Position numbers and translations under genes: made by a program
In this document: piece by piece, positions 5,260 through 63,343 of the stretch
Layout: every line of letters starts with the position of its first letter
Numbering within the stretch: position 1 is the stretch's first letter
The notes under the pieces: generated by a model
Told to the model about the DNA's origin: nothing
What the model saw: the letters and a program-made list of their open reading frames with translations, nothing else
Database searches by the model: none
Source of the DNA: Curvularia clavata
Lineage: Eukaryota
Assembly: GCA_023920165.1 (NCBI GenBank)
Contig: CP089276.1
Coordinates: forward strand, 2,480,001 to 2,544,000
Length of the DNA: 64,000 bases
Direction of reading: 5' to 3'

Positions 5260-5446
5260 TATCAGGATCTGGCCCGATTTTGTCCAACTCTACCAAAGTT
5301 AGTTAGCAAGAGACTACCTAGGGGTATAAAGTTCTAGTAATCGCTAGAAACGCTCGATGGCGATTTGTCTTGTGAAGATATGACTGTTTACGCATAGTTT
5401 TCTCTTGTCTATCTCGTGCTGTGTCTATACACTACTAACAGCCTAA
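5260..5446 (-). mobile_element. LTR relic, family C (reverse orientation)
   Basis: Reverse complement aligns by eye with 5730-5937 and 63344-63552 (CAGGATCTGGCCC...GCATAGTT...CTAACA). No TSD. Confidence 0.7.
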
Positions 5447-7293
5447 TGTTACACGGGGTCTATATGTAGTAGGGGAATACTTACCTACTCTCAGTCCAGG
5501 CTAGGGCGAGACGAGTTGTTGAAGTAAAGTGTGCGGTAGTTGTCTGGCGATTTGGGTGGAGAAGGGTTATAGATAGTTAGTTATTAGACTTTGCTAGGAT
5601 AGTATATTATGTAACTTTGGGACCCGCGATGATCGTGCTGTATTCCTTTGAACCCTTTTATGTATGGTCATCACTTTTCTTTGGCTCTCTGCATCCTTTG
5701 GTGGGTTTGTCACAGGGAAAACCTGCTTGTGTTAGACTGTTAGTATCGTAATAGAACAGCACAAGATAGATGAGAGAGAACTATGCTTTAACAGCCGTAT
5801 ATTCACGAGACGGATCGCTATCAACCCTCTCTAGCGATTACTAGAACTTTATATTACTAGGTAGTCTCTTGCTGACTAAAGCACGTACCAGGGGTAGAGC
5901 TGAGCTGGATTGACCCAATCTGGGCCAGATCCTGACAGATTTTAGTGAGATTTTGAGATGGCGCGCTCACCTATGGGGTATGTTAGACAATATACTATTA
6001 ATAATTTTGACTTAACTTTTAGAAGCTTATAGAGCTTTATCTTTAGAATACTAATAAATTAGCTACTATAATTTAAAGTAATTATATCAAGTAAACAACC
6101 AGACGGCAAGCCTACTTTAGGAAATTGATGCACCCTGTTTAGGTAATCCGGACCTTATGTAGTTATGGCTTTTGCACTACGCTCAAATAGAGAATTAGCC
6201 TCTAATATCTATCATAAAAAGTTTTCATTAAACGTCGTTTTCTATTCCCTTCTTTGCCTAATACTCTCTACTCTTATCTATTTAGTCCGCAATCCCTTAT
6301 CCAGGAACTCCTTAGGGACAAGGGTAAGGCAGGAATATCTGGCTAGTAGCTCCTAGACATAGGGCTGGTCGAGCACCTTAGAGTCGCAATCAAGGTTGCT
6401 AACACCGACAGGACAGCATGGAAGCCGTTTCACCTACTAAGCTCCTGATGGAGCTAAACAACTACACTCTGTTACCCCAAAGAGGGGCAACGCAGTCAGC
6501 GAAAGCACGGAGAGAGAAAAGGAAGAGAACAACGATAGGCAGTAGTTAAGATTTTTAAGCAGGGAAACCTGCTATATTTGCTCCAATTCTCTAGAACGAA
6601 GAAATAGTATTCGTAGACGTGTAAGGGAACCATACTGTAAGCCTAGAAGTACCATGTATGGTCACATGGTAGCCCACTTGTAATCGAGTCGGGCACTAAT
6701 GCCCAATAAGTCAATACTACGTAACAAATGACTCGGCCGCAGCCGACCCACCAGCAAAAGATAAGCATGAGAATAATCTGAACTAATTATTCAAGTGTAG
6801 TGTGTTATATATAGGCATGTAACCTTGTTACACCGCTAACTAATAATACTATATTCAAACTTGCTTTCAACATCATAATTGTAACGGGTGGGCGACAGCC
6901 GAGCGTACGACTACACAGTGCGCCCAATTAGCCAAAAAGACTGTCACAAGACAACGAAGCTTGATGTTATCTTGGCGTAGTCGGCACTTATCATCATCGT
7001 AGATCTCTTTCTTAAGTCTTGGGGCGTAGCCCATTACAATAAAAACAACAAAACAAACTTTATATTTACTCAATTCCCTACACATATAGAACTTTGAATT
7101 TATTTATTTTATTATTATCCGCGATGACTCTAACAGATCATATACCGCTGTCTAGTCACGTGATGTCTACCACGAATAGCTTACGCACTCTGCCGCCGCT
7201 TACCCCACGATCGTCCTTAACTCTCTCCTTTGAACTTTCTTTATAACACATGCCTACTATTATGTTTAGGTTTTTAATCGCCTTGCTCCTACA
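5447..7293. mobile_element. Stack of further probable LTR relics (TG...CA units at about 5447-5714, 6470-6726, 6880-7135)
   Basis: Each unit is about 250-270 bp, non-coding, TpA-rich and bounded by TGT...ACA. No second copy or TSD is visible in the window, so support is by shape only. Confidence 0.4.
5730..5937 (+). mobile_element. LTR relic, family C
   Basis: TGTTAGACTGTTAG...CCTGACA; shares GATAGATGAGAGAGAACTATGCTTTAACAGCC with the 63344 copy. Flanks do not form a clean TSD. Confidence 0.75.
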
Positions 7294-8437
7294 TGGAGTG
7301 CTCAACGTGGGCGCTGACGTCAACGCGCAAGGTGGATTCTTTGGCAGTGCTCTACAGGCAGCTTCACAGAAAGGCCACAAGCAGGTAGTTAAGATACTGC
7401 TCGACAAGGGCGCTGATATCAATGCGCAAGATAGACACTACTACGACAAAGCACTCTATTCAGCTTCAGAGGCAGGCTATGAGCAGGTGGTCAAGATACT
7501 ACTCGACAAGGGCGCTGACGTTAACGCGCAAGATCGACACTACTACGACAAAGCACTCTACTTAGCTTCAGAGGCAGGCCACGAACAGGTGGTCAAGATA
7601 CTACTTGACAAGGGCGCCAACGTCAACGTACAAGGTGGAGAATACGGCAACGCACTACAGGCAGCTTCATTAGCAGGCAAAGAGCAGATAGTCGAAATAC
7701 TGCTCAACGTAGGCGCTAATATTAACGCCCAGGGCGGAGAGTATGGCAACGCACTGCAAGCAGCTTCAGTAGGAGGCCACGAGCAGATAGTCAAGATACT
7801 GATTAACAAGGGTGCTGATGTTGATGCGCAAGGTGGATACTTTAGCAACGCACTCTACGCGGGTTCACGGCGAGGCCACGAGCAGATAGTCAAGATGCTA
7901 CTCGATAAGACTGTCAAAGTTGATGCGCAGGGTGGATTCTACGGCAACGCACTACAGGTAGCTTCACTCATAGGTGAAGAGCTGGTGGTCAAAATGCTGC
8001 TCGACAAGGGCGCTAACGTTAACGCCCAGGGTGGACGGTATGGCAACGCACTACAGACAGCTTCATTAGCAGGTAAAGAGCAGATAGTCAAAATGCTACT
8101 TAATCTAGGCGCCGATATTAACGCAAAAGGTGGAGAGTGCGGTAACGCACTACAGGCAGCTTCAGTGGGAGGCCACGAGCAGATAGTCAAGATACTGCTC
8201 GACAAGGGCGCCGACGTTAACGCGCAGGGTGGATACTTTAGCAACGCACTACAGGCAGCTTTAGTAGTAGGCCACGAACAGATAGTTAAGATGCTGCTCG
8301 ACAAAGGCGCTGATATTAATGCGCAAGGGGGAGTGTACGGCAATGCACTCTACACGGCTTTAGAGAGAGACAGCGAGGATTTGTTTAGAATATTGCTTGA
8401 CGCAGGTAGTTTTCAACCGGTGTCTTATTTTGAATAG
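7294..8437 (+). pseudogene. Ankyrin-repeat array (~11 x 33 aa), probably the 3' fragment of a larger NLR-like gene
   Basis: Repeated GADVNAQGGxYGNALQAAS...GHEQIVKILLDK. The ORF-track start (7250) lies in unrelated AT-rich sequence ending in ...CTACA at 7293. TpA-rich codons suggest RIP. Confidence 0.75.
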
Positions 8438-10770: not shown

Positions 10771-11960
10771 AAAGAGAGCACTGCAGACACGAACTGCAAC
10801 CGATCCTTGTAGATGTCGAATTGCTTAGAGGCGATACCCCCAAGATGATCAAATGTCCATAGCCGTATCAGAGATCTACAGGGGGTAAAGCCAAGAACAA
10901 AGTAGTAACTGTCTTAGACAGCGAGCACCTCCTTCACGTATCGGCTAAGGTCGAGTCACGCCTTAGACGCTTTATTAGCTAATAGGTTGCTCTTAAGCTC
11001 TCTAGGTATAAGGATATGTGACCATTACCACTTCGAGTTCACGCTAGCGTTCAGATCGTTTACAGAGTTAATATCTAGCTTGCAATTAGCAGTAAAGCCT
11101 TATAAAGGCTAATACGGCTATGCTAGCGTTTACTAGCGTATTCTAGGTACCGACTGATACCTATCTACAAGGTTCAACAGCCGCTCTATAAGTAGAACAA
11201 ACTAGCTCAAAATATTATTTTCCTTCGCCGCTTAAGGCTTGCTCTGCTAACTACTCTATCTAGAAAAGTAGACTATCTCCCTTCTTACACTTATCTCATA
11301 TAGCTCGTATCACTAGTCTTAGATCTGGCAAATCTCTAAAGAATGCTTTAAAGAAATCAGGTATGTCAACGTATAATTCTCATAACTCCTTCTTTAGCAC
11401 ATTATTTGCGTATTTGCAGTGCTCGGTCGAGTTCACGAAACTGCTGTTTGGTGGAAGGATAAGGTGGGGTAGGGTAGTGTTAAGAGTATGATCTCGAGTG
11501 GAAGTAATATAAGACTTCTGGTGTCAAGACCTTCTTTAGATTGATTTTCGCGGATAAAGCAATAGTGTATTATAAATAAAAGTTCTGCAGTAACTATTAT
11601 ATTATAGGTACTATACTCGTAACTTAAGTTAAATATATCGAGCTATAAGGGTCTAATACCTATTCCTATATACTTATAGTGCTCGTAACCCTTGGTTAGA
11701 GGAGTCTAAGTAACCCTCGATAGCTTATATACGAGGAGCATTCCTCTATAGCTTATGTACGAGGAGCCTGCTAAGACCCTTCTTTAGATATGCGCTACTA
11801 AGGAGATTATATAATGCGTGCCCCCGCGTTATATATAGCTAGGTCGACTAGTCGTTAATGCTTCTTAACTTAACTGCTGTGCCTCTTCCTCCTAGGTTTG
11901 TAATACTATTCTTCTCTTTTCTAAGCTTATTCTTAAGCTTTTCTTTATATCTAGCTAACA

Positions 11961-12475
11961 ATATCTGCCTCTAGGTCTAAAGAATATCTTCGTCTTATTT
12001 TTAAAATTCGTCGTAATAGTCTCCCCGCGCCTATCCCCTGCGATTATTATTTTGCGAATAACTATTAGTGCGTCGCGATGCCCAAAGTCGACGGTAAGCG
12101 TTTGAAGTGCTCTGAGTGCACTCGTCTAGGTCATCTATATGTTAATATATTGTAGGTGTCGTTAGACAAGACTTATAAAGAGTATTAAAAGAAAGTAGAT
12201 AAAGATAAGTAATTATTGGTTTAAGTAATTTCGCGGTTAATGCGAAATAAGAAAATTCTAAAGTAGGCTAAGGAACGTGCTATGAAGAAGACTATATATT
12301 TAGCGAATTCCTTACGCGAAGGTAGTGATAACATAGACGCGTAGGAGTCCCTAAACTGCCCTGCGGCCAATATATTAGTAGGGTTCTCACCTATTATATA
12401 GAGTACTTTGGATTCTCTAGACGCCCTAGCGTTATTTTTAAATTCTAGCAATATTTCTGTTTTTTCTTTCTAATA
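11961..12475 (+). pseudogene. Antisense accessory gene of A1: Zn2Cys6-like cluster plus coiled coil
   Basis: Frame from ATA(11961, presumed RIPped ATG): SASRSKEYLRLIFKIRRNSLPAPIPCDYYFANNY*CVAMPKVDGKRLKCSECTRLGHLYV..., followed by a charged helical stretch. Confidence 0.65.
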
Positions 12476-13179
12476 GTAAGTTCTTTTTATAGTTTTATAG
12501 TATTTTTTAATAATTACTAAGATTATCCTCTAGTTTCTATATATTTTCGCTATTATCGTATTCTAACTATTTAACTAGGTACTTGGTTTTGTTGCGCGTA
12601 GTCTAGTGTACTAGAATTTTCTTAACTTCGAATTCGTCTTCTTCTTCTAGTTCGAAATAGAATGTTTTTTATAATAGTATTTTAGGGTCTGCAGATTTTA
12701 GTAACTTAACGTGAAACTTTAGGTGTATTTTCACATCTGGTGGTAGATCGAGTGTATAGATAACTAGTCTATTCTAGGCTTTAATTAAAAATAGCTTAAC
12801 GTAGATATTATCTAATCTCTTATTTAGTTATGTCGTACGAAGGTTCTTTATAAGTAGATATACTTTATCTCTCTTCTTTAGCTAAAGTACTATTTTTCTT
12901 TTCTAGTTAATATATAAGATGCTTTAGCGTTAAGCCTTTTTAAATAATTTTTATAGTTCTTCGTATATTTTTTTTATTTCTTTAGCTATAGCGATGGCTA
13001 CTTCTATTTTCAAACTTGGTAATATTCTAGTAAAGAGATTCGGGTGTTTTCTATAGTTCGTATAAAATAGTGTTTATTTCGTTAATTCTGATAGCTTGTT
13101 ATTATATGCTAGTTATGCTATAGGTAGTAGTTATATCTAATTATTTTGTTAGTAGTTGCTATTAGACTGGTAAATGGGT

Positions 13180-13420
13180 ATGGGGCACCCGGCTCGGGTT
13201 GGGGTAGGGCTTGGGGCTATAGAGACTCGGGCTGGGGTAGGGCTAGGGCTGCTAAGAGTCGGGCTGGGGTAGGGCTGGGGCTGCTAAGAGTCGGGCTGGG
13301 GTAGGGCTGGGGCTGCTAAGAGTCGGGCTGGGGCAGGGCTGGGTTGCTTGGCACTTAGGCTAGGGTAGGGCTAGGTTACTAAAGAGTTGGGTAGAGGTAG
13401 GGCTGGGTATAGCCTGCCCA
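13180..13420 (+). repeat. Left subterminal repeats of the hAT (GGGCTGGGGTAGGGCTGGGGCTGCTAAGAGTC-type units)
   Basis: Directly visible tandem G-rich units; related units in both orientations at 19320-19590. Confidence 0.9.
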
Positions 13421-13536
13421 GCTAGGTTATGAATAACTTTAGGCTAGAAAAGATTCGAATTTATTACAGTTTATTATTACAGTAGCTTTAAAAAAAACTT
13501 TAAGATAAAACCAATAGGATTTATTACAGTTGACTA

Positions 13537-16134
13537 TTACGGTAGCGCGCAGGGCGGACACGCTTTCATAGAGAAAGTGGTAACTTGTCCTCTACCTCAT
13601 CCACTTCCTCTAGAGATTCTTCTATATCCTAACTCTAATACTAACTCCCATACTCCTCTATATCTGCTAGAAGCTTAAATAAATTACTAATATTATTAGA
13701 AAGTTAAGTAGCTTCCTCTATAGGCTCGTCTAAGTCTCTATTAAGACTCTCCATCTTATTAGAATTTATAAATTTAAGAATTATAAGTTATCGAATCTTT
13801 TTAGTAGAAAGCTAATGTCGACGATCACTAATAACTTCCTTAGTAATACTAAAGACTCTCTCTACACCTACTTGTGCAATTGGTATAGCTAGAATATCTT
13901 TTGCAACTTAGATAAGGTGGGGGTACGTAATCTTACTTACTTTCTACTACTCTAAGATATCGATATATTTCTATAGATTAATACTAGGGCTGTTTAGATA
14001 TAGCTCCTTTTTTTAATAGATTGGCCCTCTACTCTCCTCAATTTCCTAGCTTGAAGAATCTTGGCTTAAAAGAGAAATCTAGCTTAATTATAATCGAAGT
14101 AAAATAGGCCTTCGAAACTATTCTATACTTAATACTCTCTAAGGAAATAAGCTTAGTATTAACTATATAATTTCTTAATTATTATATTAAGCTAGATAAT
14201 TAAGAAACTACTGCTGGTAAATATACTTATCTTAAAACTCCTATATCTCATCCTATATCTTTTATTAGTATCTATCTATAATAAATATCTATAATAATAT
14301 CTTGTAGGCTATAAGCTTTTACATTAGATTAAAAATCGTCGTACAGTTGAATAAGAAGCTACACTCTTTATTAGTTTTCGAGTAGTATTTACTCAACTTT
14401 GCCCTCTCTTTCGCCGCCGCAGCTCTCACTACTTATGGCTAGTTGCTATTCTCTAAGTCTTTTCCTAAATCAACCTCTATCTAATTAAGAAAATTAAAAA
14501 GCTAATTATACATAAGCTAGATATATAGTATTTAAAGTTTTCGACTCTAACTTAGAGACATTATTATAGTCTTAAAATAGCTAAGCATTTTAGTAACTAT
14601 CTCAAGATGCGACTATTCTTATGCAGATAGTCGTAGTCTCTTAAGATCCTAAGAATTAATATTAGTATTATTGTCGGCCTCTAAGAGGTTTTTAGTATAG
14701 ATAGGAACTCTTAACGCGATCTCATCTTTAAGCCATTCATCGATATATTGCCGAAACTTAACTGCGCGCTTATATATATTATATGTTGAGTTCTATCGTA
14801 TTCTAACATTACGGATAACACTAAGGCGTTTTTTTAGTAGTAGATCCTGTTGTGTTGCGAGAAACCGTTCGTATCGCTGAGGAGATGAGTTAACTATAAT
14901 GCAGATTGCTCTAATCTATATTGTAGTTAGTATGTGATAAATAACTATAATAAAAAATTCTTCCCTTACGAAATGAATTAGAGACTGAGATGTTGGTATT
15001 TACTTTATTAATCTATTATCTCTACAAATCTTATATATTATCTAACTTGGTAGAAGCTAATAGTTTTAAGTACTAGATAATATTCTAGATAATAAGATTG
15101 ATAATATAGGCTAAGTAGGGAATAGTGTTTTTACTTAGACTCTAGCTTATACTAAGTTATTATAGATCTTGCTAAAGAGACTGCGTAAGAGTGCTATTAT
15201 TGCTGGCATTATCGCAAGTAATGGATAGCAATTTTTTTTAGAATTTACTTCTAGAAAGAAGTTTTAGAACTTTATCTGCTATTAAAGCTCTAGTATATCT
15301 CCTACGGATTGGTATAAAATCTAAAAGCTTTTCTTTAAGTTGCTATTAAATATTAATATAGTAACCTTTGATTATAAAGAAACTAAGATAGTTACTTAAA
15401 GTCTAACTATCTAATATAAGTAATATTTTTATTCCTTGGCTAAGATTATTAAGAAGCTTAGCTGAAGCCTTCTCAAATTATAACTTAAACGCTAGCTTAA
15501 ATTTATAACGGCTAATAATCATAGTATTAGGCTAGAGAAACTAGAGAAATCGTTAAAATAATGGCCGCTCAAGTGTTCGGAAGCTCTAGTAGTTATTAAC
15601 TACTACTCTTACTAGTTCTTGTTTGTATATCTTAGTTAAGTAGGCTAGTATTACGCGAGGATTAATATTTATTAGTAGTAGGATACTTTAGTAGAGTGAG
15701 TTCGATAGCTCGTTGTATATAGACGAAGAGATAAGCTAGTAAGTCTAGGTTTAATAATATCTATAAAGATGCTTTATACTAATATTTCTAGCTAATAGGT
15801 GCGCGAGTATATAACTATAGTTCAAGCAGAAGATATATAAACAGCTAGTTAGGACCTCTACAGCCTCTCTAAAGTTTGCCTAGATTTAGCTCGTACGATA
15901 AGAAGAGCCCCAGTATAGAACTGGCTTCGAAGGATCTCGGGCCTATAGTATTTTATTCCACTACTTTTTCTAGTTTAAAATAATTGCTTTATTTTCTTCA
16001 TTACTATTATTTTTAAATACTAAATACTAGATAAGTGTAAGTATGACTTTAAGACTACCTTTATCTCAATATAGAGCATTTATCTTAAAATGCGCAAGGA
16101 TATCTAGCAATTCTATAGGAGGCTCAGCCATCAT
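13537..16134 (-). pseudogene. hAT transposase, RIP-inactivated
   Basis: KILLILDS*T (first Asp motif), SITCDNASNN, IPYLAYIINL (CxxH after de-RIP), VRIR*NSTY, and dimerisation domain **KVSKITYPHLI*VAKDILAIPIAQVGVERVFS...DRRH*L. Intron at ~14917-14960. Confidence 0.92.
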
Positions 16135-16329
16135 GAAGATTATACCTATAATAAATAATTATAATAAATTAAAGTTACTAGATAGACAAATATTATCTAT
16201 AGAAAACTAGATATGGTAGGAAGTTCTAAGTCCTCTAGCTTCTAGCATAGCTAAGATTGTCTAAAACACTAGTGTTATTTAATATATATCTAAAGTAAGT
16301 TTTATATAAGAGAAAGTTTAGATCAACAC

Positions 16330-17625
16330 AGAGGTTATACTATAATTATTAGCTAGAATAAACCCTAGTATAATATTCTAAACCCTAACTACTAGAGTAT
16401 TGTTAGAGATCTGCTTAAATAGCCAGCACTACTCAGACTTCTCTTCTTTAGCCTTTTCATCTTAATCCTCAGCCTCCTCTATCTCAGTACTATTAGCCCC
16501 TTCTAGAGCTAAAAAGCTATCGTTACTACTATAGCCATCCTTATCCTCGTCTATAATCTTATTCTTATTATTAACCTCTTCTTTACACTTATTACTATTA
16601 TAGCCCTCAATATATAGCTTATTATCCTTAAAACGCGTATCTAGATCAAACTAGTCAAGAATAGAAGTAGGCTCTTCTTGTCTATACTAGTTAGTCTTTA
16701 AATATAATAATAAACTATAATAAACTTACTATTAGAAACTATCTATAGTAAGTTCTTTTTCTTTAGAAGAAAGGTTTTCGTAAAACTTGAGCTACTTATC
16801 TCGTGCTTGCTCACTCTCAAAGATATTGTTGTTTAGCTTAGCTAATCCTTAAAGATATTCTTTGCGTATAAGTAAATCAACAACCCCCTTTTAACTATAG
16901 AGACGAGCAGAAACGCGTAACCCCTTAGTAGAGGTATTAGACAGAGCGTCGCTAGAGGTAGTCTAGAGAATAAGCTAATACTATCTTTTATTGATCTTAT
17001 TCTAGATTTTAGACCATTTCGCGTATATAGCTTGGAGAGCAAACGCTATCTAATTAGCTAATAACTATTAGTAGATATCTATAATAAAAGACTATAATAA
17101 CTTACTACTTCGCTTTTCTTTAAAGCGCTTAGATTTATACTCTTTAAAATAGCTCTTTATAATCCTATCCTTCTTATCCTCTCTGGCGGTCTTATACTAT
17201 TCTTTCTCTTTAAATAACTTAAGAAATTTCGCCCGAGCAGCGCGGTTAGCATCTTTGGCGCGTTGGAGAGCGGCTTCTTCCTTAGTACGTGACGCGGCGA
17301 GATCTCTCTATGCAATAGCTCGAGCTATATTACTAAGCTGACCTTGATATTAGACTTGTAGACTAGTTGGACGACCCTTTTAGGAACCTCTAGATCCACG
17401 TTACGCAATAATAAAATTAATCTTATCTTACTTATTTTCAAAGCCCTACTAACGTTAGTATTTACTATAATAATAGACTAGAATTATTACTTTAGTAAGA
17501 TCTATCTACTTCTACTTAGTAAAGTTCTTAGATATTTAGGCAACGCGTAGAGGTGCTAGACCCTCAGATACGTCGCCATCAGTCTCTGTCGTAGACTCGC
17601 GCTTAATTTCTGGCGTACGCGGCAT
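16330..17625 (-). pseudogene. Second hAT cargo gene, unknown; coiled-coil-like middle and acidic tail; 3' end approximate
   Basis: ATG 17625 MPRTPEIKRESTTETDGDVSEG, then ...RDLAASRTKEEAALQRAKDANRAARAKFLKLF... GTA...TAG introns near 17450-17490, 17055-17105 and 16682-16729. Confidence 0.6.
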
Positions 17626-18541
17626 TATTAACTATAATAAAGTACTAATATAACGTCTAGTATAGTGAGAGTAGGGAGAAAAGGGATAGTTACTAAGAGA
17701 AAGTAGGAAGTTTGGTGATAGTCTACCTATTAAAGTAATTAGAGGTCCGTGCGCTCTAGATTTCGCGCTAGCATTAGGCTAGCGAACAACATCTTTCATA
17801 CAGCTAATATCTTAGATAATAAAAATTAGAGCGCTTTAATTTTAGTCTTATTTAAAAGCCCTAGAGTAGCTCTATCTAACGAGCTAGTTATTATAGTATT
17901 TAATCACTACTTTATTAAGTTATAGCAATTTCTTGCTAACTATCTCGCAGACCCTTAGTAAAACTCTAGGTAATCCATGCACTCACCTTCACCTTCACCT
18001 TCATCTACTCATATATCCCCAAAATTCTTAACTACTCTATAGCTAAGTATTTATCCACTAATCCTCTCAATCCAAATCTAACTTTCCTAGCCTAACACTA
18101 AATTTCTCAACTCAACCCTACTAGTTATTACAGAAATTTATCACGTACTATATTAGCAGTAGACAAGGTAGGGGGGCTAGACGATAAGTTGTTTGAGGAG
18201 ATGGCAGAACAGTTAAATATGCTCCTGTCGCCTAAAAGACAGGTATCTTAGCCGCTGTTACCTCGCGAATTAGAAGCTCTTAAAGACGAATTTAAGGTTT
18301 TAGGAGCTTAGATAACTAGCAATTCTACTTTTTCTACTAAAAGTGGCTAACTAAATCTATAAGTTTATCACAGTAATTTATCATAGAAAATGGCTAATAA
18401 ATACTAGGACTACTATTTATAATTATCCCTTCCCGCCCCATATCTCAACTAGTGGCTATCTTATATCTTTTACATACGTTTATCACAGTAATTTATTACA
18501 AGTAATAGCTAACTAATAGTAGGACTGGCACTATATTCTAT

Positions 18542-19118
18542 AGTGTAGGTGGCAAAACCGCTCATAAGCAGCCAGTCAATTATAGGCCGCCCACGCCTAA
18601 GCCTAACAATAAGAATCAAGAGTTGGAAAGCAGCAAGGAAGACGAGTCCGGCCCTCCTACACCACCCGGTGCTCAACCATCTACGTCTGGCGCCTCTAAG
18701 AGGCGCAGGTTTAAGTCTAGCAATAAATTTATCACAGTTATTTATTATAGCAAGCGACTAATAATTACTAGCTATTACACTAAAAGAGATTAAAAGATTC
18801 TAAAAATCTACTAATCTATTTATTCCAAAAACTCAATTTATAAAACTTATTAGGGAGATTATAGGAGACGTATATCCGCAACACCCTCTACGTATCTAAA
18901 GAGAGACATTAGAAGGTCTTTAAGAGACTGCTAAGTATTTCTTGGTTAAATTTCTTAAAGATATATTATATTATTATAGATATTAATCACAGCTACTAAT
19001 AGATCTAGACTATAACATAAATGCTATCTATACTAAGAGAGTTACTATTCAGAAGAAGGATAGGGATCTTGTCAAGCACTATCTTAACAGACTTGGTATA
19101 GATAGTATTAAGTACTGA
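18542..19118 (+). pseudogene. Histone H3-like gene (tail motif plus histone fold) carried by the hAT; further 5' exons likely from ~17977
   Basis: Spliced translation (introns 18723-18771, 18961-19008): SVGGKTAHKQ...KRRRFKSST ITLKEIKRF*KSTNLFIPKTQFIKLIREIIGDVYPQHPLRI*RETLEGL*ETAKYFLVKFLKD YNINAIYTKRVTIQKKDRDLVK. Colinear with H3 [20 protein letters not shown]...AIHAKRVTI. Confidence 0.9.
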
Positions 19119-19319
19119 GGGCTTTTATAATAGAGTATCAAGTACTAATAGCTTTTATAATTGAGGGATAGCCATAATTAAGAACTAGCTATATACTAGA
19201 AATTAAATAAAAGTTTTATAAGTTCTTAATTTTTAATTTACTACTATAATAATTATGCGTAATAAGTCTTTAATATATACAGAGTATATATATATCTAAT
19301 AACTAAGATCTAGCATAAC

Positions 19320-19590
19320 CTAGTACTAAGCAACCTAGCCCTACCCTAGCCCGCTTATTAAGCAACCCAGCCCTGCCCCTACCCAACTCTTGACTAACCC
19401 AGCCCTGCCCCTACCCAACTTAAATGCCAAGAGTTGGGTAGGAGCAGGGCTAGGTTACCTAATAAGCGGGCTAGGGTAGGGCTGGGTTAGCCAAGAGTTG
19501 GGTAGGGGCAGGGCTGGGTTGCTTAGTCATCTGACCCAGCCCTACCCCTACCCAACTCTTAGCAGCCCTGCCCCAGCCCTGCCCCAGCCC
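19320..19590 (-). repeat. Right subterminal repeats of the hAT
   Basis: CCCAGCCCTGCCCCTACCCAAC units and their reverse complement, same unit family as the left end. Confidence 0.9.
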
Positions 19591-19943
19591 ATTTACCAGT
19601 CTAGTTGCTATACATTCTAAGGTATGTTTTCATTATGCGATTTATTCTTTCTGTTTGTCTGTTGGTTTCTGGGTGGTAAGCTGTAGATAATTTTCTTTTA
19701 GTGCCTATTTCTACTATAAGTGTGGTCTAGAAATTTAATGTGAAAAGCTTATCTCGATTGCTAATGATTGACCTTGGTATTCCGTAATATCTGATGATTT
19801 TGTCGTAGATAACGTGCGTAAGTTGTACTATAGTATAATCTTTTTGGAATAGTATGTATTCGGCGTATTTCGTAAATCTGTCGATAACAACTAGTATTGT
19901 GTTGTAAACTGTGTCGGTGACGAGGTCTATTGATAGTAGTAGT

Positions 19944-25900: not shown

Positions 25901-27139
25901 TTATAAATTTTGTCTTAAATTTAGCGAAGGTTTCCTTTTTGTCTATGAGCAAGCGGTGGAAAGCAGCGCGGCTTTCCGCTTGCTTGTTGCTGGATACGAA
26001 GTATGATTTTAGAGTAGCTATTATATTTTTGGCGTTTTGGAACCGGTCCTCCACTGAATTGGCTAGGTACTGTGGTTCTAGGTATCTCTTGGCGATATCT
26101 GTAGTATGTCCTCAGACTAGAGCTATGCGTGCGCGTTTACTCTGATAATGGTCTGTATTGATTATTAAGCGGTCCTCTATTGACGCTTGCTATTGGCGGA
26201 ATATAGATTCTGTTCTATTACTAAGATTATTAATAGAAGGGGTACGTTCTATGAGTTTGATACGTAGTAGGTCTAGGGTTGCTGACTAGTACCTTCTGAA
26301 TTGAGTTTCGGTTGGTTTAGCGATAGTTGGTAGTAATTCGGTAGAGGGGAGAGGTTGATCTGGGGCTGCGGTGTTTTGGCGGGATAGCCGTATGATTTAT
26401 TCGTTTAGCCTGTTGATCTCTGCCTGAAAGAGGCTAGTCTTATTTTCTTCTAAATTCTCTTCCTCTTCGATAGCTGGCGGTTTGCTAGGCGTCTTCTCTC
26501 TTAACTTTGAATCTTAGAAGCGCGGCGACTTTCTAGAAAGCTCTCCTAAGCCAGATGGGGTTAAGTCAGCTATTGACGGTTGTCTTCGTGGCTGATGGGT
26601 TTTTAGTAGTCTCTAAGTCTCTACCCTAGCGTAATCTACGTGACTTCTCTGAAGTTAATCTAACTGCAATTAGTATAGGAGGTCTAAACCTAAAGGCTTC
26701 GGTTAGCGGGAGATTGAAAGGATCCCGCCTGTGTGTGAATGTGGGACGTAACAGTGTGAAGTATCCAGAGCGGTTCTAGAGGGACTTAGACTTAGGCGCG
26801 GTCTTAATAAATAAGCTGCGATATTATTTTAAAGGCCGTCACTAGCTGGGACGAGATTTTTGATATAATGTAACGGCGCGAGCAAGACTAGTCGAATCGG
26901 TTCTGGTGGGAAGTGTCACTTAAATGCATATGGAAGTGCGTGGGACAGCAGAAACACTTTGGATTTGGTAGACACTTATAGGCCTGGTATGAAAGGATAT
27001 TAAAAATCTACCGAACATCTATAGAAGGTACCTGGTACTTATACCTAGGTGCGGGTCTTCATCGGGTCTAACCCGGCTCTCAATCGGATCTTGATAAGCT
27101 GCCCTGGCTGGGGTATGTTTTGGTCTATGTATGGTTACA
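19944..27139 (-). mobile_element. Ty3/Gypsy LTR retrotransposon B, full length, RIP-inactivated
   Basis: 271-bp LTRs at 19944-20214 and 26869-27139. TSD GTAGT. Polypurine tract (reverse complement) at 20215-20230. gag ~25500-26500, protease-like ~25130-25330, RT IVYLDDILIYS ~23945-23980, then RNaseH, integrase and chromodomain (~21600-21720). Confidence 0.95.
20700..21367 (+). pseudogene. Antisense, intron-containing accessory gene of element B with Cys cluster and coiled coil
   Basis: TATA-like run at 20601. ATA(20700) PLRCPPSALPDAYRFIYLRAVRVLARR*FDITYAYPSNSSKKCLYYTQQKEKCDS, then an intron at 20868-20920 (ATAAAT...GCTAAC...TAG), then VSKYVFKEF...ISELVDIVNSIERRLSRLKA. Confidence 0.55.
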
Positions 27140-31991: not shown

Positions 31992-34900
31992 TGTTACGAA
32001 CCTAGGAGGAAGAGGCACGGCGGTTAAGTTAAGAAGCATCAACGACCAGTCGACCTAGCTATATGTAACGCGGGGGCACGCATTATATAATCTCCTCAGT
32101 AGCGCATATCCGAGGAAGGGTCTTGGCAGGCTCCTCGTATATAAGCTATAGAAGAATACTCCTTATACATAAGCCACCAAAGGTTACTCGGACTCTTCTA
32201 ACTAAGGGTCGCGAGCACTATAAGTATATAGAAATAGATATTAAGCCCTTATAGCTTAATATATTCAACTTAAGTTATAAGTATAATATCTATAATATAA
32301 TAGTTACTACAGAATCTTTATTTATAATATACTATTATTTTATCTACGAAAACTAATCTAAGAAGGTCTTAATACTAGAAGTCTTATATTACTTCTACTT
32401 AAAATTATACTCTTAATACTTTAAATACTCTTATAATAAGCAACATTACTATAAACACTCCTAACGCTTCTTAGACTAGAGGATCTACTACTTATAGATA
32501 TAAGCCTAACTTATACTATAAAGAATGTAAAAAGCTTAAAATCTAGCTTCTCTAGGTCGACTAATACTTCTATCTTAAAGGAGATAAGATCGATAATACT
32601 AATAAGATTATCGTGGCTACTTTATACCTTCGCGGTGATGCTGAGAAGTAGGCTAACCCTATTATTGAACGCTATATAGATAACTTCATCTAGGATGCTA
32701 ATAATATAGCCCTAGTCGAGGACTAGGACGTCTTTAAAACCAAAATATAATAAAACTTCTTACTATTTAAAGAATTAGTTATTGCGGAATAGAAGATCTA
32801 GGAATTTTGCTAGACGCAGTCCGCTACTAACTATACTACACTATTTTAGTAGTACGCTATAGTTATAGAATAGAATAATAATACCCTTATACGTATATAT
32901 AAGCAAGGTCTTAAACCTACTATACACAGGGAACTCATATAAAGTGGAGCCAGTATTAGTATACTGAAAGAACTTATCGAAGAATCTATTCGACTAGATA
33001 ACAAACTCTACGAACTCTTATTAGAAGAACGACTATTTAGTAAAGGAACGCGCAGCTAGAGATACACAAATAAACGACCTAAGAAGCACAACTATCGACG
33101 TGCTTACCTAAACGAAGGTCGACAGCGAAACTACACGCCTAGGACCCTAGGAGCCTATTATAGATACAGTATAGAACTAATATATCTTAATAATATTAAT
33201 AAAGGCAACGGGCCTAGCAAGTTTAATAAAGAACTATTTAAGAGTAAGAAGAAGTTTAACTACTACGCCTATGGTAAGGAAGGCCATATAGTACGAGACT
33301 GTCGAAACAAAGATACTAATAAGGTTAAGTAATAACTTAACATACTACGCAGGAAATTAGAGCTAGATAATAATAAAAGATAGAACGTTATTACTCTAGC
33401 TAAGATCTAATATTATCTAGACGATAAAGGACTTATTAGCAGACTAGAGAATGTTACGCTTACTACATCTAAGGACACTACTAAAGCTGAACTAAGTAGC
33501 GACGAAGGGTATAAAATATCTAGTAAGAAAGAAGAAACTCCTACGCATAAAACTAAATATAAGAAGATGGCTAAATTTAAAAAGAAACACCAACTAGCTA
33601 CTCCGCGCTATAATAGCGCCTTACTAGAAATTCTATATATAAGAGATAACCCGAAATATATAGAACTACAGACTAATATACTACAATAACTCTTAAGTTA
33701 ACCCTTTTACGGGTATAATTATAATAAGCCTAATATACTTCTTTATATATATAAAGATATATAGAATTTTAGATTAGATATTAACTTCTTTTCTATTATA
33801 ACTAATTAGAAACTACTAGACTACACGTATATTATAGCTAATATCTAATAACTACGAGAAAATATAGAGTTCCCTAAAAATAAGAAGACACCCTAGAAGG
33901 AGAACTCTACAACGACATCTCAATAGGCTAAGAAGGCACAAGCAGACTAGATACGCGACAATTAGTACTAACTTAGTCTCTACTAGTACCATACAAACAA
34001 CTATAAGCACGCGTAGACCTACTAGACAAATTGCGTCCACAACTTTTGCCCAGCATATTAGCAAGCTAAGCAGGGATCTAACTAGAACCTAACCAATATT
34101 CCAGAATACCCCAAATACAATAGGTTATAGTTAGAGTATACTAATGTAGAATACGCAAAGCACCTATAGGATAAACGCACCGTGATATACTTCCTAGGAA
34201 GAGATAGTCTAAGAGAAGTAGTGGATATGTAAACTACCTATATTATTTAAAGCAAGGGCAATATATAATAAGTATATAATTAACCCTTATGGCATATTTG
34301 TCTCTTAAATGAATGCGAGAAATATAAAATAGAGAAACTCTATAATAAATTTATAAAGAAGTTATAGACTTTTTTAGGCTAGTACTATAAAAGCAGGGCC
34401 CCTCTAGGGAAATCAATTTAGTAAACTCTCTAGAATTAATTAAACTTATAGTAAAGCTTAATAGAATACAGATATAGGTATTAGTGGACTTAGAATTATA
34501 GATAAACTACGTTTTAATATATATAGTATAATAAGCTAGACTTAAAGTATAGTAGAAATAAAAGCTATACCCACTATATATCGCTAGCGGCGAACTAATA
34601 TCTAAAGGAAACAGAATCACAGACGAGGTCAGATAAGTAATACTTAGCATTTAAGAGTATAAAGAGGAAATAGACTTAGACGTCTTTGGACTAGCTATCT
34701 ACAATATTATTTTAGAACTCTTATAGCTACAAGAACACAACCCGTAGATCGACTAGAAGTTAAAAGTATTCAAATTCAAATGCTACAGACTAGGCGCAAC
34801 CGCAAGCCAGCCTACGTATTAGCAGAGTTCGATAGTAGATAAGAGTAATATTACCAAACAGTACAATAACACAGAGAAACGAGCGTACTCAAAAGATAGT

Positions 34901-37900
34901 TTCTAGAGTAGAAAGCCAAACTTAGCAGATACTAAAACTAGGCTAATAGACTACAAAGCTAGAGAAAAGGAGAAAAGCGCAACTCTAGAAATCCCTAAAC
35001 AATATAGAAAATTCGAGTATCTATTTTAGAAAGTAGTAGACAAATAAACATTACTAAAGCATTAACCCTAGAACTATAAAATAGTCCTATAGGAAAGAAA
35101 GCAACCAACTTTCAGCCTAATTTACTAACTATCAGAATAAGAACTTACAGTACTACAAGAGTATATAGACAAGTCACTAGCGAAAGGCTATATATAACTA
35201 TTAAAATCCCTAGCGGGATACCCTATTATATTTATACTAAAGAAGGACGGCACAGATCGACTATACATTGACTACAGATAACTTAACAACATCACGGTCA
35301 AGAATCGATACCCACTACTAAACATCAGAGAATTTAGAGATCGACTATTTCGAGCAGAAATCTTTACAGTATTAGATCTACGAGACAGATACTATCTTAT
35401 TAGAATTAAGAAAGGTGAAAAATAGAAAACGGCTTTCCAAATACAATACGGACACTACAAATACATAGTTATGCCGTTTAGGCTAATAAACACTCTAACC
35501 ACATTTCAAGAACTTATTAATAACGTATTTAGACCCTATCTAGATATATTCATTATCGCCTATCTAGATAATATCCTAATCTACTCTAAAAATAAAAAAT
35601 AATATACTAAGTATATCAGAAAGGTGCTAAAAGCCCTAGACAAGTACAGTCTTCAACTCAAGCTAAAGAAGTGTGAGTTTCACAAGACCAAAGTCAACTT
35701 CTTAGGCTACGTAGTAGGGACCAACAGAGTACAAATAAGCGAAGAAAAAATTAAAATCATTAAAAATTAGCCAACACTAAAGTCAGTCACAGATATTCAG
35801 TTATTCTTAGAATTTACAAATTTTAACTAAGAATTTATTAAAAATTACTTAAAAATCGTAACACTAATAACACGGCTTACAAGAAAAGATACCCTATAGA
35901 ATTAGAATAAAAAAGTAGATAACGCCTTCAAAACAATCAAAAAAACATATACTATACCACTATACTTTAGAATATTTATTCCAGAAGTACCACTAAAATT
36001 TAAAACCAACACATCGGACCTAGCCCTAGGAGGATGCGCTAGCATCTACATCAATAGCAAATAGTATCTAATAGTATACTACTTAAGGAAGCTCTTAGGA
36101 CCAGAAGAATAATACGACGTACACAACAAAGAACTACTAGCTATAGTAGCCTGCATATAACACTAGAGAGTCTACGCACATAGCTACTCAGAACTTACTA
36201 TATACACAGATTATAAGAACTTAACCCACTTCACCACTACTAAGATTCTTAACTAATAATAGACCCAATAGGCTGAATTGCTCGGACAATATAAGTTCAA
36301 AATCATATATATACTAGGAAAAGATAATAATAGAGCAGACGCTCTTAGCAAAAGACTAGATATTGTAGAAATAAAAACTATTATAGACTAACTAATACTC
36401 TAGACTAATAAAGATAGAATACTAAGTCTAGTATATAAACTTAACCTACTTATAATAATTAGAAACAATATATTTAAAAACTAGTAGGAAGTAATTATTT
36501 AGTAATATTATGATAACCCTATATACAGATATTCTAGGATTGCCAGAATAATAGAACTAATTCAAAGAAACTTTAAATTTAGCAAAATAAAAGAAAAGGT
36601 CGTAGCCTTTATCGCTAAATGCGAATACTATTAGAAGAATAAGTACAGCACACACGCACTATACGGAGAAATGCAAGCACTAGAACTGCCAAACACCCCT
36701 TAGGCAGACATCTCCATAGACTTCGTCATAGAATTACCACCATCAACAGACCCTGTCACTGGTACAATCTATAACGCGATACTAGTTATTATTGACAGAT
36801 TTACAAAATACGCAGAATTTAGGAAATTTAGGAAAGACTATAATGTAGTTAAACTAGTATATATCTTTCTAGACGTTATTATTAGATGATATAGAATACT
36901 AAAATTAATTATTAGCGATAGAGATAAGCTCTTTATATCTAACTTCTAGACTATACTCTAAGTAGAAATAGGTACTAAGCGAAAGCTATCTATAGTATAC
37001 CACCCCGAAACCGATGGATAAATGGAAAGGATAAACTATATAATGAAAATATACCTATAAATATACGCTAACTATTAGTAAAATAACTAGGTATAATTAC
37101 TATCTATGGTACAACTAGCATACAACAACAAATTATTAGAATTAATAAAATAAATACTATTTTACGCAAACTATAGAAGACACCCGAATCTCTTTACTAG
37201 AACGTTACTAAATTTAAAAATAAAAGTAGCTATCGCTACGGCTGAAGAAATGAAGAAAATACACGAAGAACTATAAGAATTACTTAAAAAGGCTTAACGC
37301 TAAAGCATCTTATATGTTAATTAGAAAAGAAAAATAGCATTTTAGCTAAAAAAGGGGGATAAAGTATATCTGCTTACGAAGAACCTTCGTATAATACAAT
37401 TAAGTAAGGGATTAGATAATATCTATATTAGGCTATTTTTAATTAAAGCCTAGAATAGACTAGTTACCTATATACTCGATCTACTACTAGATATAAAGAT
37501 ATATCTAAAATTTTATATTAAGCTACTAAAACCCGCAGACCCTAAAACGCTATTATAAAAAACATTCTATTTCGAACTAGAAGAAGAAGACGAATTCGAA
37601 GTCGAGAAAATTCTAGTATACTAAACTATGCGTAATAAAACTGAGTATTTAGTTAAATAGTTAGAATACGATAATAGCGAAAATATATAGAAACTAGAGG
37701 ATAATTTTAGTAATTATTAAAAGATACTACGAAACTATAAAAAAGAACTTACTATTAGGAAGAAAAAATAGAAGTATTGCTAGGATTTGAGGACGACGCT
37801 AGGGCGTCTAGGGAATCTAAAGTACTCTATATAATAGGTGAGAACCCTACTAACGTATTAGCTGTGGGGCAGTTCAGGGACTCTTGCGCGTCTACGTTAT

Positions 37901-38749
37901 CACTATCTTCGTGTAAGGAATTCACTAAATATATAGTCTTCTTTGTAGTACGTTCCTCAGCCTGCTTTAGAATCTTCTTATTTTACATTAACCGCGAAAT
38001 TACTTAAGCTAATAATTACTTATTTTTATCTACTTTTTTTTAATACTCTTTACGAGTCTTATTTAATGATATCTATGATATGTTAATATATAGGTGACCT
38101 AGACGAGTGCACTCAGAGCACTTTAAATGCTTGCTGTCGACTTTAGGCATCGCGACGCACTAATAGTTATTCGCAAAACAATAATCGCAGGAGATAGGCG
38201 TAGGGAGACTGTTACGACGAATCTTAAAAGTAAGATAAAGATATTCTTTAGATCTGGGGGTAGATATTGTTAGCTAGATATAAGGAAAAGCTTAAGGATA
38301 AGCTTAAGAAAGAGGAGGATGGTATTACGAACCTAGGAGGAAGAGGCACGGTGGTTAAGTTAAGAAGCATTGACGACTAGTTGACCTAGCCATATATAAT
38401 GCGGGGGCACGCATTATATAATCTTTTTAGTAGCGTATATCTAAGGAAGGGTCTTAGTAGGCTCTTTATGTATAAGCCATAGAGGAATGCTCCTTGTATA
38501 TAAGTTACTAAGGGTTACTCGGACTTTTCTGACTAAGGGTCGCGAGTACTATAAGTATATAGGAATAGATATTGAGCTCTTATAGCTCGATGTGTTTAAC
38601 TTAAGTTACAAGTATAGTACCTATAATATAATAGTTACTGCAGAACCTTTATTTATAACACACTGTTGCTTCATCCGCGAAAACCAACCTAAGAAGGTCT
38701 TGACACCAGAAGTCTTATATTACTTCCACTCGAGATCATACTCTTAACA
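31992..38749 (+). mobile_element. Ty3/Gypsy element A2 (same LTR family as A1), full length, inserted in inverted orientation into the A1 5' LTR
   Basis: 427-bp LTRs at 31992-32418 and 38323-38749. TSD CTTAT. PPT AAGAAAGAGGAGGATGG before the 3' LTR. gag knuckle ~33260-33305, RT AYLDNILIYS ~35560, integrase ~36500-37100, chromodomain EFEVEKIL ~37590. Confidence 0.95.
37755..38267 (-). pseudogene. Antisense Zn2Cys6-like accessory gene of A2
   Basis: PISCDYCFANNY*CVAMPKVDSKHLKCSECTRLGHLYI; homologous to 11961-12475 and retains CDYC. Confidence 0.65.
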
Positions 38750-41044
38750 CTTATGTACGAGAAGCATTTCTCTGTGGCTTATATACGAGGAGCCTGCCAA
38801 GACCCTTCCTTAGACATGCGCCACCGAGGAGGTCACGTGATGCGTGCCCCCGCGTTACATATGGCTGGGTCGACTGGTCGTCGATGCTTCTTAACTTAAC
38901 CGCCGTGCCTCTTCCTCCCAGGTTTGTAACAGGTAGAGGCGTCGACTTGGTGACGACATCGTATACTCTATTCTAGACGACTTTGTCGGGCTGGAATTCG
39001 AGAACCGCATCGAGTAGAGGTTGTGTTTATTTGGCGTCGATGTTATCTAAACTAACTGCAGCATTAAGCCACAGGAGGTTATGAAAGATGGTTTTGCCTT
39101 GATACTAGAATTGTAAAAATAGAATCGCTAGAAGGGCTCGCAAAGCGGAAAGAAGATTAACGAATAAGTCCTCGTTGAATGCTTACGAATATCTATATCT
39201 TTTGTTGCACGCGTGGGTACAATCAAATCGGTCTGTATTGTGTGTGCTATCTACCATCTTCATGTAACTATGTGTATTGTATAGCTATTGCTTTTTCTTG
39301 TTGAGGCTGTGCATCCTTGCTGCCGTTACAGTGGCTTGTTGCTTCAGTTCAGCTGAATTCATTGCTTCTGCAGCCCTGCCTCGGCTGCGACATCTTTGCA
39401 TGTTGAATCGAGGGTGTTCTAACAGCTACTTGACTCTTCGCCTATCAGTTTAGATTGTATGACTTGCGATCGCGACTACGTATATGTATCTTTACAGATG
39501 CATGAGTCGCCAAAAAGTGCCATAGCGCTGTCGCGCACACAGCCGCTCACAATCCTACATAATCTAGAAAGAATAAGATAAGACTAAAAGTAATAAGAAG
39601 CAAAATATAATGCATGTTAGCGATGGCGCGAGAAGATTGCGAATATACGCGACGACACGCAGGCTTTACTTGGCACCACGTCGGTTCCCCAAGCTGTTGA
39701 TTAGTTCGTGCACTATAGCACGTTTGGAGCACTCAACATTCTATACCCACACCTCCACTTTTACTGTCATCGACTGTTGACTTTATTTATCTGCGCATTT
39801 GTGCGAATATATACAAGTATTCATATCACAAGTCCTCAATATTACTAAAAGGTATCTTGAGATCTTGAAAAATTTATAAGCTGGAAATAGAAAGAGAGAA
39901 GGTAATAATGCACGTACGGATTGTTTTGACAATACTGTTAAACGATAGCTTGTTTAGATACAGAAATAGGAATCTCAGTACATCAACGGTTAAAATATAA
40001 AACGGGCATGCTCCTTTTTTGCGCTGCCGTTAGGGTCGGATATTTCCTCATTAGGTATTACACCGGCAAGCTGGCTGAGTGAGATGTATGGACCAAAGAA
40101 ACCTGAATGAGCCCAACGCGGAGCGCCCAGAATATCCAATTTTGCAGCGCTTGCGCTCCAAGGACATTGTGCTCTTCGTACCAGCGGACAGTGCATGTCA
40201 TTTTCGTCCTTAGCTGTTGTCGCGTATGGGCAGCACCTCCACTTGCCTCAAAAAATCATCATTTCCATCGATTGATATTTGACGAAGCATAACGTGGCTG
40301 CATAGGAGCACTGCGGAAGAATAGCAATACTTGATTTGGCGTGGCATTTCGACTCAGTCCCCACCATGTTGATTGTGGGCGTTATCTGTTGTGTGTTATG
40401 GCGTCAGCGCTGCATGGCTGTACCCGGAAAAGCCTAGTGCAGGTATACCGTGGGTGAGTGGGCTTCGTCCACCCCCACTAAATTCATCGACCCTGAGCTC
40501 CACATATTCATTGTCTAAATGGCACCGCCACAATTTGTTCTTCCAGCGCGCCGTTGTTCTGCTACGCGTCACTGGTCACAGGCAATAACAGCACGGAACG
40601 GAGCGTTATCCCGCCGAATAAGAAATGTAATGCCCATGTATTCATTGATATCGATTAATGGTGGCGGAATTCGATATCGTTCCGCGACTCGTATTAACAA
40701 CTCATGTTTGTGTATTTCGCACGCGGATCGCGTACATGAAGTTTTGATGAGGTTTCAGAATGCATAAGAAGAAGGAAATGAGCGGGCTTCATGGCGCGAG
40801 TTAGGCCCTATAGACTTTCTTGCTCGGGATTCGTCGCACGGGTTTGAACGAGCGGACTTTGTCGAGCGGGATTCGCGCTTCACACAAACGAATTCCGGTC
40901 CATTGTTTACGATTGTCATGTGCACACTCCGTATAAAAGAAAAATACGTACCTGGCTGTGTTGAAGGTCCGTTACATGGGCTTATGTGTTCTACAACTTC
41001 TCTTCGCCAAACTCTTCCCCCGTGATTACCGATTGGTTAGCATC

Positions 41045-63260: not shown

Positions 63261-63343
63261 CCTTACACTACTGAATTCTTTTTTATATAGTGCTTAATAT
63301 TTTAAGGCAAGTAGATAGAGAGAGTAAATATAATAGAAGTTAG

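Follow-up and report, generated by a model that had tools for sequence, protein, structure and literature searches.

In a 64,000-nucleotide stretch of the Curvularia clavata genome (GenBank assembly GCA_023920165.1, contig CP089276.1, positions 2,480,001 to 2,544,000; the whole stretch is called the window below), two copies of a Ty3/Gypsy retrotransposon carry an additional open reading frame (ORF) that runs antisense between pol and the 3′ long terminal repeat (LTR). We consider it very probable that this ORF is the relic of a real, element-borne accessory gene that belongs to an ascomycete lineage of chromodomain Ty3/Gypsy elements, encodes a zinc-cluster-like protein, and is dead in the window. 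LTR retrotransposons are usually thought to need gag and pol only. A third gene that is fixed in place, under selection, and widespread in fungal Gypsy elements suggests that part of fungal Gypsy biology is missing from the standard picture.

The antisense frame and its damage

The antisense frame comprises 171 codons in each copy, from an ATA triplet (11961 in copy 1, 38267 in copy 2) to the final stop (12471-12473 and 37755-37757, respectively). Translation of both copies bore out the frame and the cysteine reading that an initial annotation of this DNA had proposed. Of the extent given there, 11961 to 12475, the start stands, while the end falls 2 nt earlier, where the final stop closes at 12473. 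The following features can be placed on the two copies; identities are from tblastn with the intact homologue P0001.

11961..12473, + strand: antisense accessory ORF of copy 1, a relic of repeat-induced point mutation (RIP); 65.7% identity to P0001 over 169 amino acids, E 3e-62
37755..38267, - strand: antisense accessory ORF of copy 2, a RIP relic; 65.3% identity to P0001 over 170 amino acids, E 7e-70
12039..12140, + strand: six-cysteine cluster of copy 1, codons 27-60; cysteines 1, 3, 4 and 5 kept, positions 2 and 6 both TAT
38088..38189, - strand: six-cysteine cluster of copy 2; cysteines 1-5 kept
12153..12320, + strand: region of copy 1 matching the long helix (residues 65-120) of the intact protein, the predicted dimer interface

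The cluster reads C-DY-Y-FANNY*-C-VAMPKVDGKRLK-C-SE-C-TRLGHL-Y in copy 1 and C-DY-C-FANNY*-C-VAMPKVDSKHLK-C-SE-C-TRLGHL-Y in copy 2. Taken together, the copies hold five of the six cysteines, and position six is TAT in both. The single stop within the copy 1 cluster is a TAG at a column where relatives carry Q. Gal4-type spacing with at most one cysteine read as tyrosine occurs once in the real window and was found in 1 of 200 shuffles (dinucleotide-preserving, over the whole window, in six frames, with stops allowed). Within the 64-kb window, no family match was found beyond the two copies.

Both copies were killed by RIP. There are eight premature stops in copy 1 and seven in copy 2, and every one of them is TAA or TAG. 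Between the two ORFs, 66 of 513 positions differ, all by transitions and with zero indels; over the 1683 bp that the copies share, 210/210 mismatches are transitions. The copies lie in an AT-rich block that extends from ~11 to 40 kb of the window with a GC content of 0.30-0.39. In this block the TpA/ApT ratio is 1.38-1.56, compared with 0.63-0.72 in the genic flanks, and the (CpA+TpG)/(ApC+GpT) ratio is 0.47-0.61, compared with 1.26-1.31. Natural intact homologues served as the undamaged reference. In alignments with them, the window's ATA stands opposite the start methionine, tyrosines stand opposite cysteines 2 and 6, and each stop aligns to Q, W, R or a variable column. Indeed, the sixth cysteine, which the initial annotation had supplied by a RIP-type reversal of TAT to TGT, is present at that position in the natural proteins.

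In each RIP-damaged copy, the sense strand has an 82-codon frame without stops that overlaps the antisense ORF (12221-12469, - strand; 37759-38007, + strand). Since any sense frame is open in at most 1 of 22 intact relatives, this frame is a shadow of the real antisense ORF.

Homologues, fixed position and selection

A search with the RIP-damaged translation, with X at the stops, returned 20 proteins of 108-211 amino acids, the best at E 2e-67 with 65% identity and 98% coverage. Annotated matches include proteins of Exserohilum turcica, Periconia macrospinosa and Pyrenophora tritici-repentis, and UniRef labels two family members as Zn(2)-C6 fungal-type domain proteins. By exhaustive HMMER searching, the family grew to 126 clusters at E<=1e-3, 38 of them at E<=1e-10, with lengths of 51-263 amino acids except for P0144 (407), and a profile search added members from Cercospora, Elsinoe, Hortaea, Sporormia and Boeremia. 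All named hosts are Dothideomycetes, names being available for a minority of the matches; a protein atlas search gave ascomycete clusters only.

Intact homologues are ~170 amino acids long and contain all six cysteines, spaced C-x2-C-x6-C-x7..15-C-x2-C-x6-C. This full motif is present in 177 of 295 family proteins, and the remainder are mostly N-terminally truncated gene calls. The intact protein begins with a short basic helix. The six-cysteine knot comes next, then an invariant cap (SW-SLD-TR) and a helix ~56 residues long, and an acidic linker leads on to a C-terminal motif of conserved hydrophobic-acidic character.

Many family entries (~105-131 amino acids; P0017, P0018, P0020, P0239) start at an internal methionine, either just past the cysteine knot (MSW motif) or between cysteines 3 and 4 (MPEVDG motif), and the knot is partly or wholly missing from them. 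Truncated or mislabeled calls of these transposon ORFs are frequent, and an unrelated automatic name, for example "DUF169 family", is attached to a few. In several fungal genomes, family ORFs are annotated as "hypothetical" or "Zn(2)-C6 domain" host genes; they should count as transposon genes.

The position of the gene is constant. Metagenome contigs scanned with two family peptide patterns provided 52 loci from lineages that share 34-62% identity, and intact pol proteins from four of these loci served as queries for pol. In 52 of 52 loci, the strand opposite the match carries a Gypsy pol C terminus, at -191 to +236 nt relative to the match end. The ORF and pol converge in the intact loci, where their 3′ ends overlap by 41-195 nt; in copy 1 of the window the overlap is ~36 nt. 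On the other side, the end of the LTR-edge motif lies upstream of the ORF start by 47-106 nt (37/46 regions with the motif), the corresponding distance in the window copies being 55 nt. Eight relatives have two LTRs, and there the ORF follows the BLAST-defined end of the 3′ LTR at a distance of 44-83 nt. Because of the pol overlap and these LTR-edge distances, the ORF is seen to occupy almost the whole interval from the polypurine tract to the pol end, outside the LTR. The start codon of copy 1 is 56 nt internal to the inner LTR edge at 11905; the earlier placement of the start ~55 bp inside the 3′ LTR therefore has to be given up. By contrast, the claim that the gene belongs to the element and lies antisense between pol and the 3′ LTR agrees with both window copies and with every locus collected, and homologues proved always to sit antisense downstream of Gypsy pol, as the annotation had suggested checking.

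11476..11905, - strand: 3′ LTR of copy 1, ~430 bp, delimited by self-BLAST (11476-11903 matches 38325-38752 and 31994-32421) and by a conserved edge motif
11908..11921, - strand: polypurine tract of copy 1, which appears as polypyrimidine when the ORF strand is read; it adjoins the LTR edge in relatives too
11923..11940, no strand: inverted repeat of copy 1, located between the polypurine tract and the ORF start, with 7-bp arms and a 4-nt loop (AAGCTTA-TTCT-TAAGCTT)
38288..38305, no strand: inverted repeat of copy 2, as in copy 1 with loop TCCT
12438..13157, - strand: 3′ part of pol of copy 1 (remains of the integrase C terminus and chromodomain), with its first stop at 12440-12438

Conservation of the ORF extends to its codons. 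No stop interrupts the matched part in 39 of the 52 loci, and all six cysteines are present in 34 of the 52. Among 22 distinct intact ORFs (80 pairs), the median ratio of nonsynonymous to synonymous substitution rates (dN/dS) is 0.19 in the ORF frame and 0.31-1.71 in the other five frames, each of which is stop-free in at most 1 of 22 loci; the 22 ORFs were picked for an open ORF frame, and only this comparison across frames is informative. The pol-overlapping end (the last 90 alignment columns) was omitted from dN/dS, and the last 60 nt were omitted from the stop counts. Distances between ORFs follow those between pol proteins (Mantel r 0.47, with 0 of 2000 permutations as high; 10 loci). In these same 10 loci, the mean pairwise distance is 0.44 for the ORF and 0.45 for the last 250 residues of pol. 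The accessory protein is thus under purifying selection and co-diverges with pol. On the three points by which the initial annotation had proposed that its claim be judged, the intact homologues have an open frame, carry the sixth cysteine, and show codon-level conservation.

The short region upstream of the ORF also has a conserved structure. Read on the ORF strand, the LTR edge (GTAACA; TGTTAC in the sense orientation of the element) comes first, followed by the complement of the polypurine tract, a short hairpin and the start codon. In copy 1 the inner LTR edge is TATTAC, the RIP form of the TGTTAC found in intact relatives. The hairpin lies 17-20 nt beyond the LTR edge and stands beside the polypurine tract in the relatives L001-L050. 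A stem with six of six pairs (perfect or with G.T) was found in 34 of 39 distinct regions and in 125 of 2000 shuffled regions; pairs were counted by script, as MAFFT misregisters hairpins with 3-nt loops against those with 4-nt loops. Stems are 6-8 bp long, and 22 different 5′ arms still pair, while the loop is nearly constant as TCCT or TCC. In the window, the stem has mutated symmetrically and pairing is retained (11923-11940 and 38288-38305). Non-Watson-Crick pairs, read on the ORF strand, are G.T in 10 cases and A.C in two, some of the G.T pairs coming from RIP-type copies. This bias is a hint that the folding strand may be nucleic acid of the ORF strand, be it the leader of an antisense mRNA or minus-strand cDNA. 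The hairpin could be a cis element of reverse transcription, or it could form the leader of the antisense mRNA.

Protein fold and possible roles

Sequence likeness to the Gal4-type cluster recurs in the family but stays below threshold. Matches to PF00172 below the gathering cut-off of 21 bits were obtained for 8 of 10 members at E<=10 (10.5-17.2 bits) and for 7 of 53 at E<=0.1 (14.2-18.6 bits). Neither of the RIP-damaged translations from the window gave a Pfam match, even at E<=10. An AlphaFold 2 (AF2) model of P0001, built with 26 relatives, has a mean predicted local distance difference test score (pLDDT) of 80 and consists of a helix at residues 7-19, a cysteine knot at 20-62 with short helices at 28-32 and 51-56, a long helix at 65-120, and a poorly defined tail. 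The coiled-coil-like stretch that had been noticed after the cluster in the damaged copies thus corresponds, in the model of an intact homologue, to a long helix that follows the knot. In a Foldseek search, the 12 best rows are all Zn2Cys6 DNA-binding domains (Hap1, Put3, Leu3, AlcR, Pho7), the best at an E of only 0.24; no match was found at E<=1e-3. VIA-align superposes the knot on those of Leu3, Lac9, Gal4, Pho7 and Hap1 with a root-mean-square deviation of 1.5-1.8 A over 33-38 residues (Z 2.6-3.1). Across 177 members, the second half of the knot reads C-S/A-E-C-T/V-R-x-G-R/K-P-C, which looks canonical, and two positions of the Cys5-Cys6 R-x-G-R/K stretch are K or R in 80-82%.

Structure prediction also supports a homodimer formed by the long helix. 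When two copies of P0001 residues 1-125 were modeled with four zinc ions, without a family alignment, the dimer score was 0.52, against 0.00 for the best control. In calibration on a ligand-free set, 21 of 30 same-chain pairs and 0 of 23 single chains reached the mark; on eukaryotes, 17 of 29 did, and only 1 of 7 of those without an older solved relative. The dimer runs share at least 95% of their contacts, and the partner pLDDT is at least 82. The predicted arrangement places the cysteine knots at opposite ends of a rod, each contacting the end of the partner's helix.

Because of this fold and of the gene's layout, we infer a zinc knot that would bind two zinc ions, a dimerizing helix, and transcription from the LTR side; DNA binding by the protein is likewise a prediction of the modeled fold. 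The gene lies opposite gag-pol, starts ~50-100 nt internal to the 3′ LTR edge, past the polypurine tract and the hairpin, and runs toward pol until its last codons overlap those of pol. Its mRNA would start in or at the edge of the 3′ LTR, which would then be read backwards. The protein may be a dimeric regulator that binds nucleic acid and acts on the LTR-driven expression or the replication of its own element; we put this role forward tentatively, as our best guess but something short of probable. By position, it would be a fungal counterpart of the accessory factors encoded at the 3′ end of retroviruses. HBZ of human T-cell leukemia virus type 1 (HTLV-1), a basic leucine zipper protein, is such a case: a small dimerizing factor of an animal retrovirus that is encoded antisense beside the 3′ LTR. 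The likeness to HBZ is one of layout only, namely a small, predicted dimeric antisense factor adjoining the 3′ LTR of a retroelement. A bolder version, which we think rather unlikely in its entirety, holds that a large and previously unclassified family across ascomycete chromoviruses encodes dimeric regulators, each specific to its element and expressed by antisense promoter activity of the 3′ LTR, that switch their own LTR or counter host silencing, as a fungal counterpart of HBZ or Tax. If so, the hairpin beside the polypurine tract could belong to the control circuit of the regulator. Were the protein to regulate the element, or the silencing of the element, this would matter for the onset and the end of transposon bursts in fungi. 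Plant pathogens are among these fungi, and their AT-rich, transposon-filled compartments shape genome evolution.

Several observations weigh against a gene that encodes a DNA-binding regulator of the Gal4 type. Both window copies are dead, so no protein is made from either. Of the Gal4-type binuclear cluster proposed by the initial annotation, the spacing stands, with six cysteines in the intact homologues, but the Pfam check fails: all 63 intact members scanned fall below the PF00172 cut-off, the best at 18.6 bits. Comparison of a family profile with PDB sequences retrieved no Zn2Cys6 chain, only chance coiled-coil-like rows at E>=0.42. The structural matches have low Z-scores (2.4-3.2), which the small size of the domain would lead one to expect, and the AF2 model may simply echo the cysteine spacing. 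In Gal4 and Ppr1, lysines between Cys2 and Cys3 contact the bases and read the CGG half-site; here, this stretch is F/L-x-x-G/N-x-x, with K+R at 0, 6, 8, 2, 31 and 6% by position among the 177 members. Because of the subthreshold Pfam scores and this paucity of K and R, the protein is classed as Zn2Cys6-like rather than as a member of PF00172. Moreover, Gal4-type factors dimerize via parallel coiled coils, whereas the dimer predicted here is antiparallel, with residue 79 contacting 96-100, 72 contacting 100-103, and 86 contacting 86-89 around a center near residue 87. As to transcription, the sequences compared revealed no transcript, start site or promoter. The upstream regions share no TATA-like word common to all lineages; one subgroup has TATATA at -85 to -87, within the LTR, and another has, as judged by eye, a TTATAAGC-like word ~40-50 nt upstream of the ATG. 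Contigs of four presumed-RNA runs are strandless, short, low-depth pieces of other RIP-type copies, none of which spans the ORF, and a poly(A) or poly(T) end was found at no locus. Finally, the 52 loci were collected via the ORF; they show that the ORF accompanies pol, not that pol accompanies the ORF, and they include duplicates from sister assemblies (L006/L007, L033/L034, L040/L041, L043/L044 and L047/L048).

It is useful to set these points against other explanations. The same gene may do a different job, its product being a protein- or RNA-binding adaptor, not a sequence-specific DNA binder, that holds Gag or integrase, guides integration, or blunts host silencing. We regard such an adaptor as a possibility to be taken seriously, although not a probable one. 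It would fit a Cys2-Cys3 stretch without conserved basic residues, PF00172 scores that are subthreshold throughout, and a predicted antiparallel dimer that sets the knots at opposite ends of a rod, unlike Gal4-type factors. It would also fit the weak but recurring matches to the domain of unknown function DUF3716 (PF12511) in 5 of the 63 members (P0010, 17.9 bits; P0032, 18.2; P0044, 14.5; P0033, 13.5; P0062, 14.8; cut-off 22 bits). However, the best structural matches are all DNA-binding Zn2Cys6 domains, and the conserved basic N-terminal helix together with the Cys5-Cys6 stretch could contact nucleic acid. Compared with Gal4-type factors as a whole (PF00172; Gal4, Put3, Ppr1, Hap1, Leu3, Pho7, AlcR), the family shares the six-cysteine spacing, the second half of the knot (C-x-E-C-T/V-R-x-G-R/K-P-C) and, in the model, a knot that superposes at 1.5-1.8 A and a helix after it that is predicted to dimerize. 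It differs from them in its Pfam scores, its Cys2-Cys3 stretch and the direction of its predicted dimer, and in being a protein of only ~170 amino acids, without a large regulatory domain, that is borne by a retrotransposon and not by the host.

These resemblances to the N-terminal part of host factors, in cysteine spacing and in fold, could also mean that the ORF is a captured fragment of a host Zn2Cys6 transcription factor, carried along as a functionless passenger. This is highly improbable given the strong purifying selection (dN/dS 0.19), a divergence that equals that of pol and accompanies it, and a position fixed in 52/52 loci across lineages of 34-62% identity; the searches, moreover, gave no host paralogue above threshold. 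An ancient capture of a host factor, followed by co-option, may nevertheless lie at the origin of the gene. Still harder to credit is a chance cysteine pattern, or a shadow frame held open by the sense strand. AT-rich RIP sequence does allow many "revertible" stops, and the 82-codon sense frame overlaps the ORF in both copies, but the pattern arose in 1 of 200 shuffles, intact homologues match at E 2e-67, no sense frame is free of stops in more than 1 of 22 relatives, and dN/dS is lowest in the ORF frame. Chance, a shadow frame, and a functionless captured fragment are thus effectively excluded.

A different question is whether the accessory gene of this lineage is already on record. According to the parts of the citing papers available to us, the Boty-like Gypsy elements of Botrytis cinerea carry a gene, brtn (Zhao et al. 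2011, Virology 417:248), that lies antisense between pol and the 3′ LTR (PMC7264820, PMC8365987, PMC4227169, PMC5987419), and it is also reported in Boty-like elements of Sclerotinia sclerotiorum (PMC7264820, PMC8365987, PMC4227169). We find the arguments for and against identity of our family with brtn evenly balanced; if they are the same, our finding adds only new hosts and a fold assignment. In these partial accounts, position, orientation and element type agree, brtn too being an additional antisense gene that a fungal Gypsy element with a chromodomain carries past the end of pol, before the 3′ LTR (PMC7264820, PMC8365987, PMC4227169), and the family is large and spread across many divergent Gypsy lineages. 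Against identity, no Botrytis or Sclerotinia occurs among the named members, which is weak evidence when names cover a minority of matches; the named hosts here are Dothideomycetes, and the citing-paper accounts of brtn, as far as available, make no mention of a zinc cluster, the two being compared by position and description only.

Antisense ORFs between pol and the 3′ LTR are also described, in the part of the review PMC7264820 at hand, for the plant elements Grande, RIRE2, Retand and PvRetro13, where they are conserved about as well as other element proteins; the review calls the function of such ORFs in general unknown. They match the window family in position, orientation and level of conservation. 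They differ in belonging to plant, non-chromovirus lineages, none being reported as zinc-cluster-like in that part of the review, and sequence kinship is not expected. Thus, the initial claim that the gene lies outside the standard gag-pol model is true, but the arrangement is not new, since antisense ORFs at this place were known in plants and in Boty (PMC7264820, in the part available). What is added to this known arrangement is the fold assignment, the size of the family, the strict synteny, the evidence of selection, and the hairpin at the polypurine tract. A literature search, thin on subscription journals, found no description of a zinc-cluster gene inside a Gypsy element, and the accessible text supplements of PMC8365987 contain none of the terms "brtn", "additional ORF" and "zinc".

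Host element and nested transposon block

The host element is of the chromovirus type of Ty3/Gypsy. The pol of the intact relative L010 has the chromodomain set: in order, protease, RVT_1, RNase H, integrase, SH3_Tf2-1 and Chromo (69.7 bits). Copy 2 of the window is the full-length one.

31994..38752, + strand: copy 2, full length, with LTRs at 31994-32421 and ~38323-38752, gag at ~32715-33434, and pol from ~34154

Its gag and pol are in different frames. The pol of copy 2 aligns with that of L010 at 52% identity over 1189 amino acids and passes Pfam for RVT_1 (84 bits) and RT_RNaseH (58 bits), and its chromodomain is discernible by alignment only. Among the relatives, contigs L005, L010 and L014 (6.3-6.8 kb) have identical sequence of 130-315 bp at both ends and a permuted element order (gag, LTR, ORF, pol, gag). 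These contigs may reflect collapse of the LTRs by the assembler, or tandem or one-LTR circular forms.

By self-comparison, the two copies stand head-to-head with their junction at 31991/31992, and copy 1 extends down to 11476. It is interrupted by insertions at 13157-19620 and 19947-27151, as well as by a solo LTR at 31363-31640. The second insertion is an element of ~7.2 kb with LTRs of 274-280 bp at 19940-20217 and 26869-27142 that are 94% alike, and the LTR of this element recurs a third time as the 31363-31640 copy. An additional, inverted partial LTR of the host family lies at 38750-38929, so that the nested transposon block spans 11476-38929.

Outside the block, a GC-normal part of the window at 7299-8377 holds ~10 tandem units of ~99-100 bp that are 70-78% alike and may be a repetitive coding region. 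Two short stretches, 5297-5951 and 63343-63563, match at 76-77% identity across the GC-normal flanks, one in direct and one in inverted orientation.

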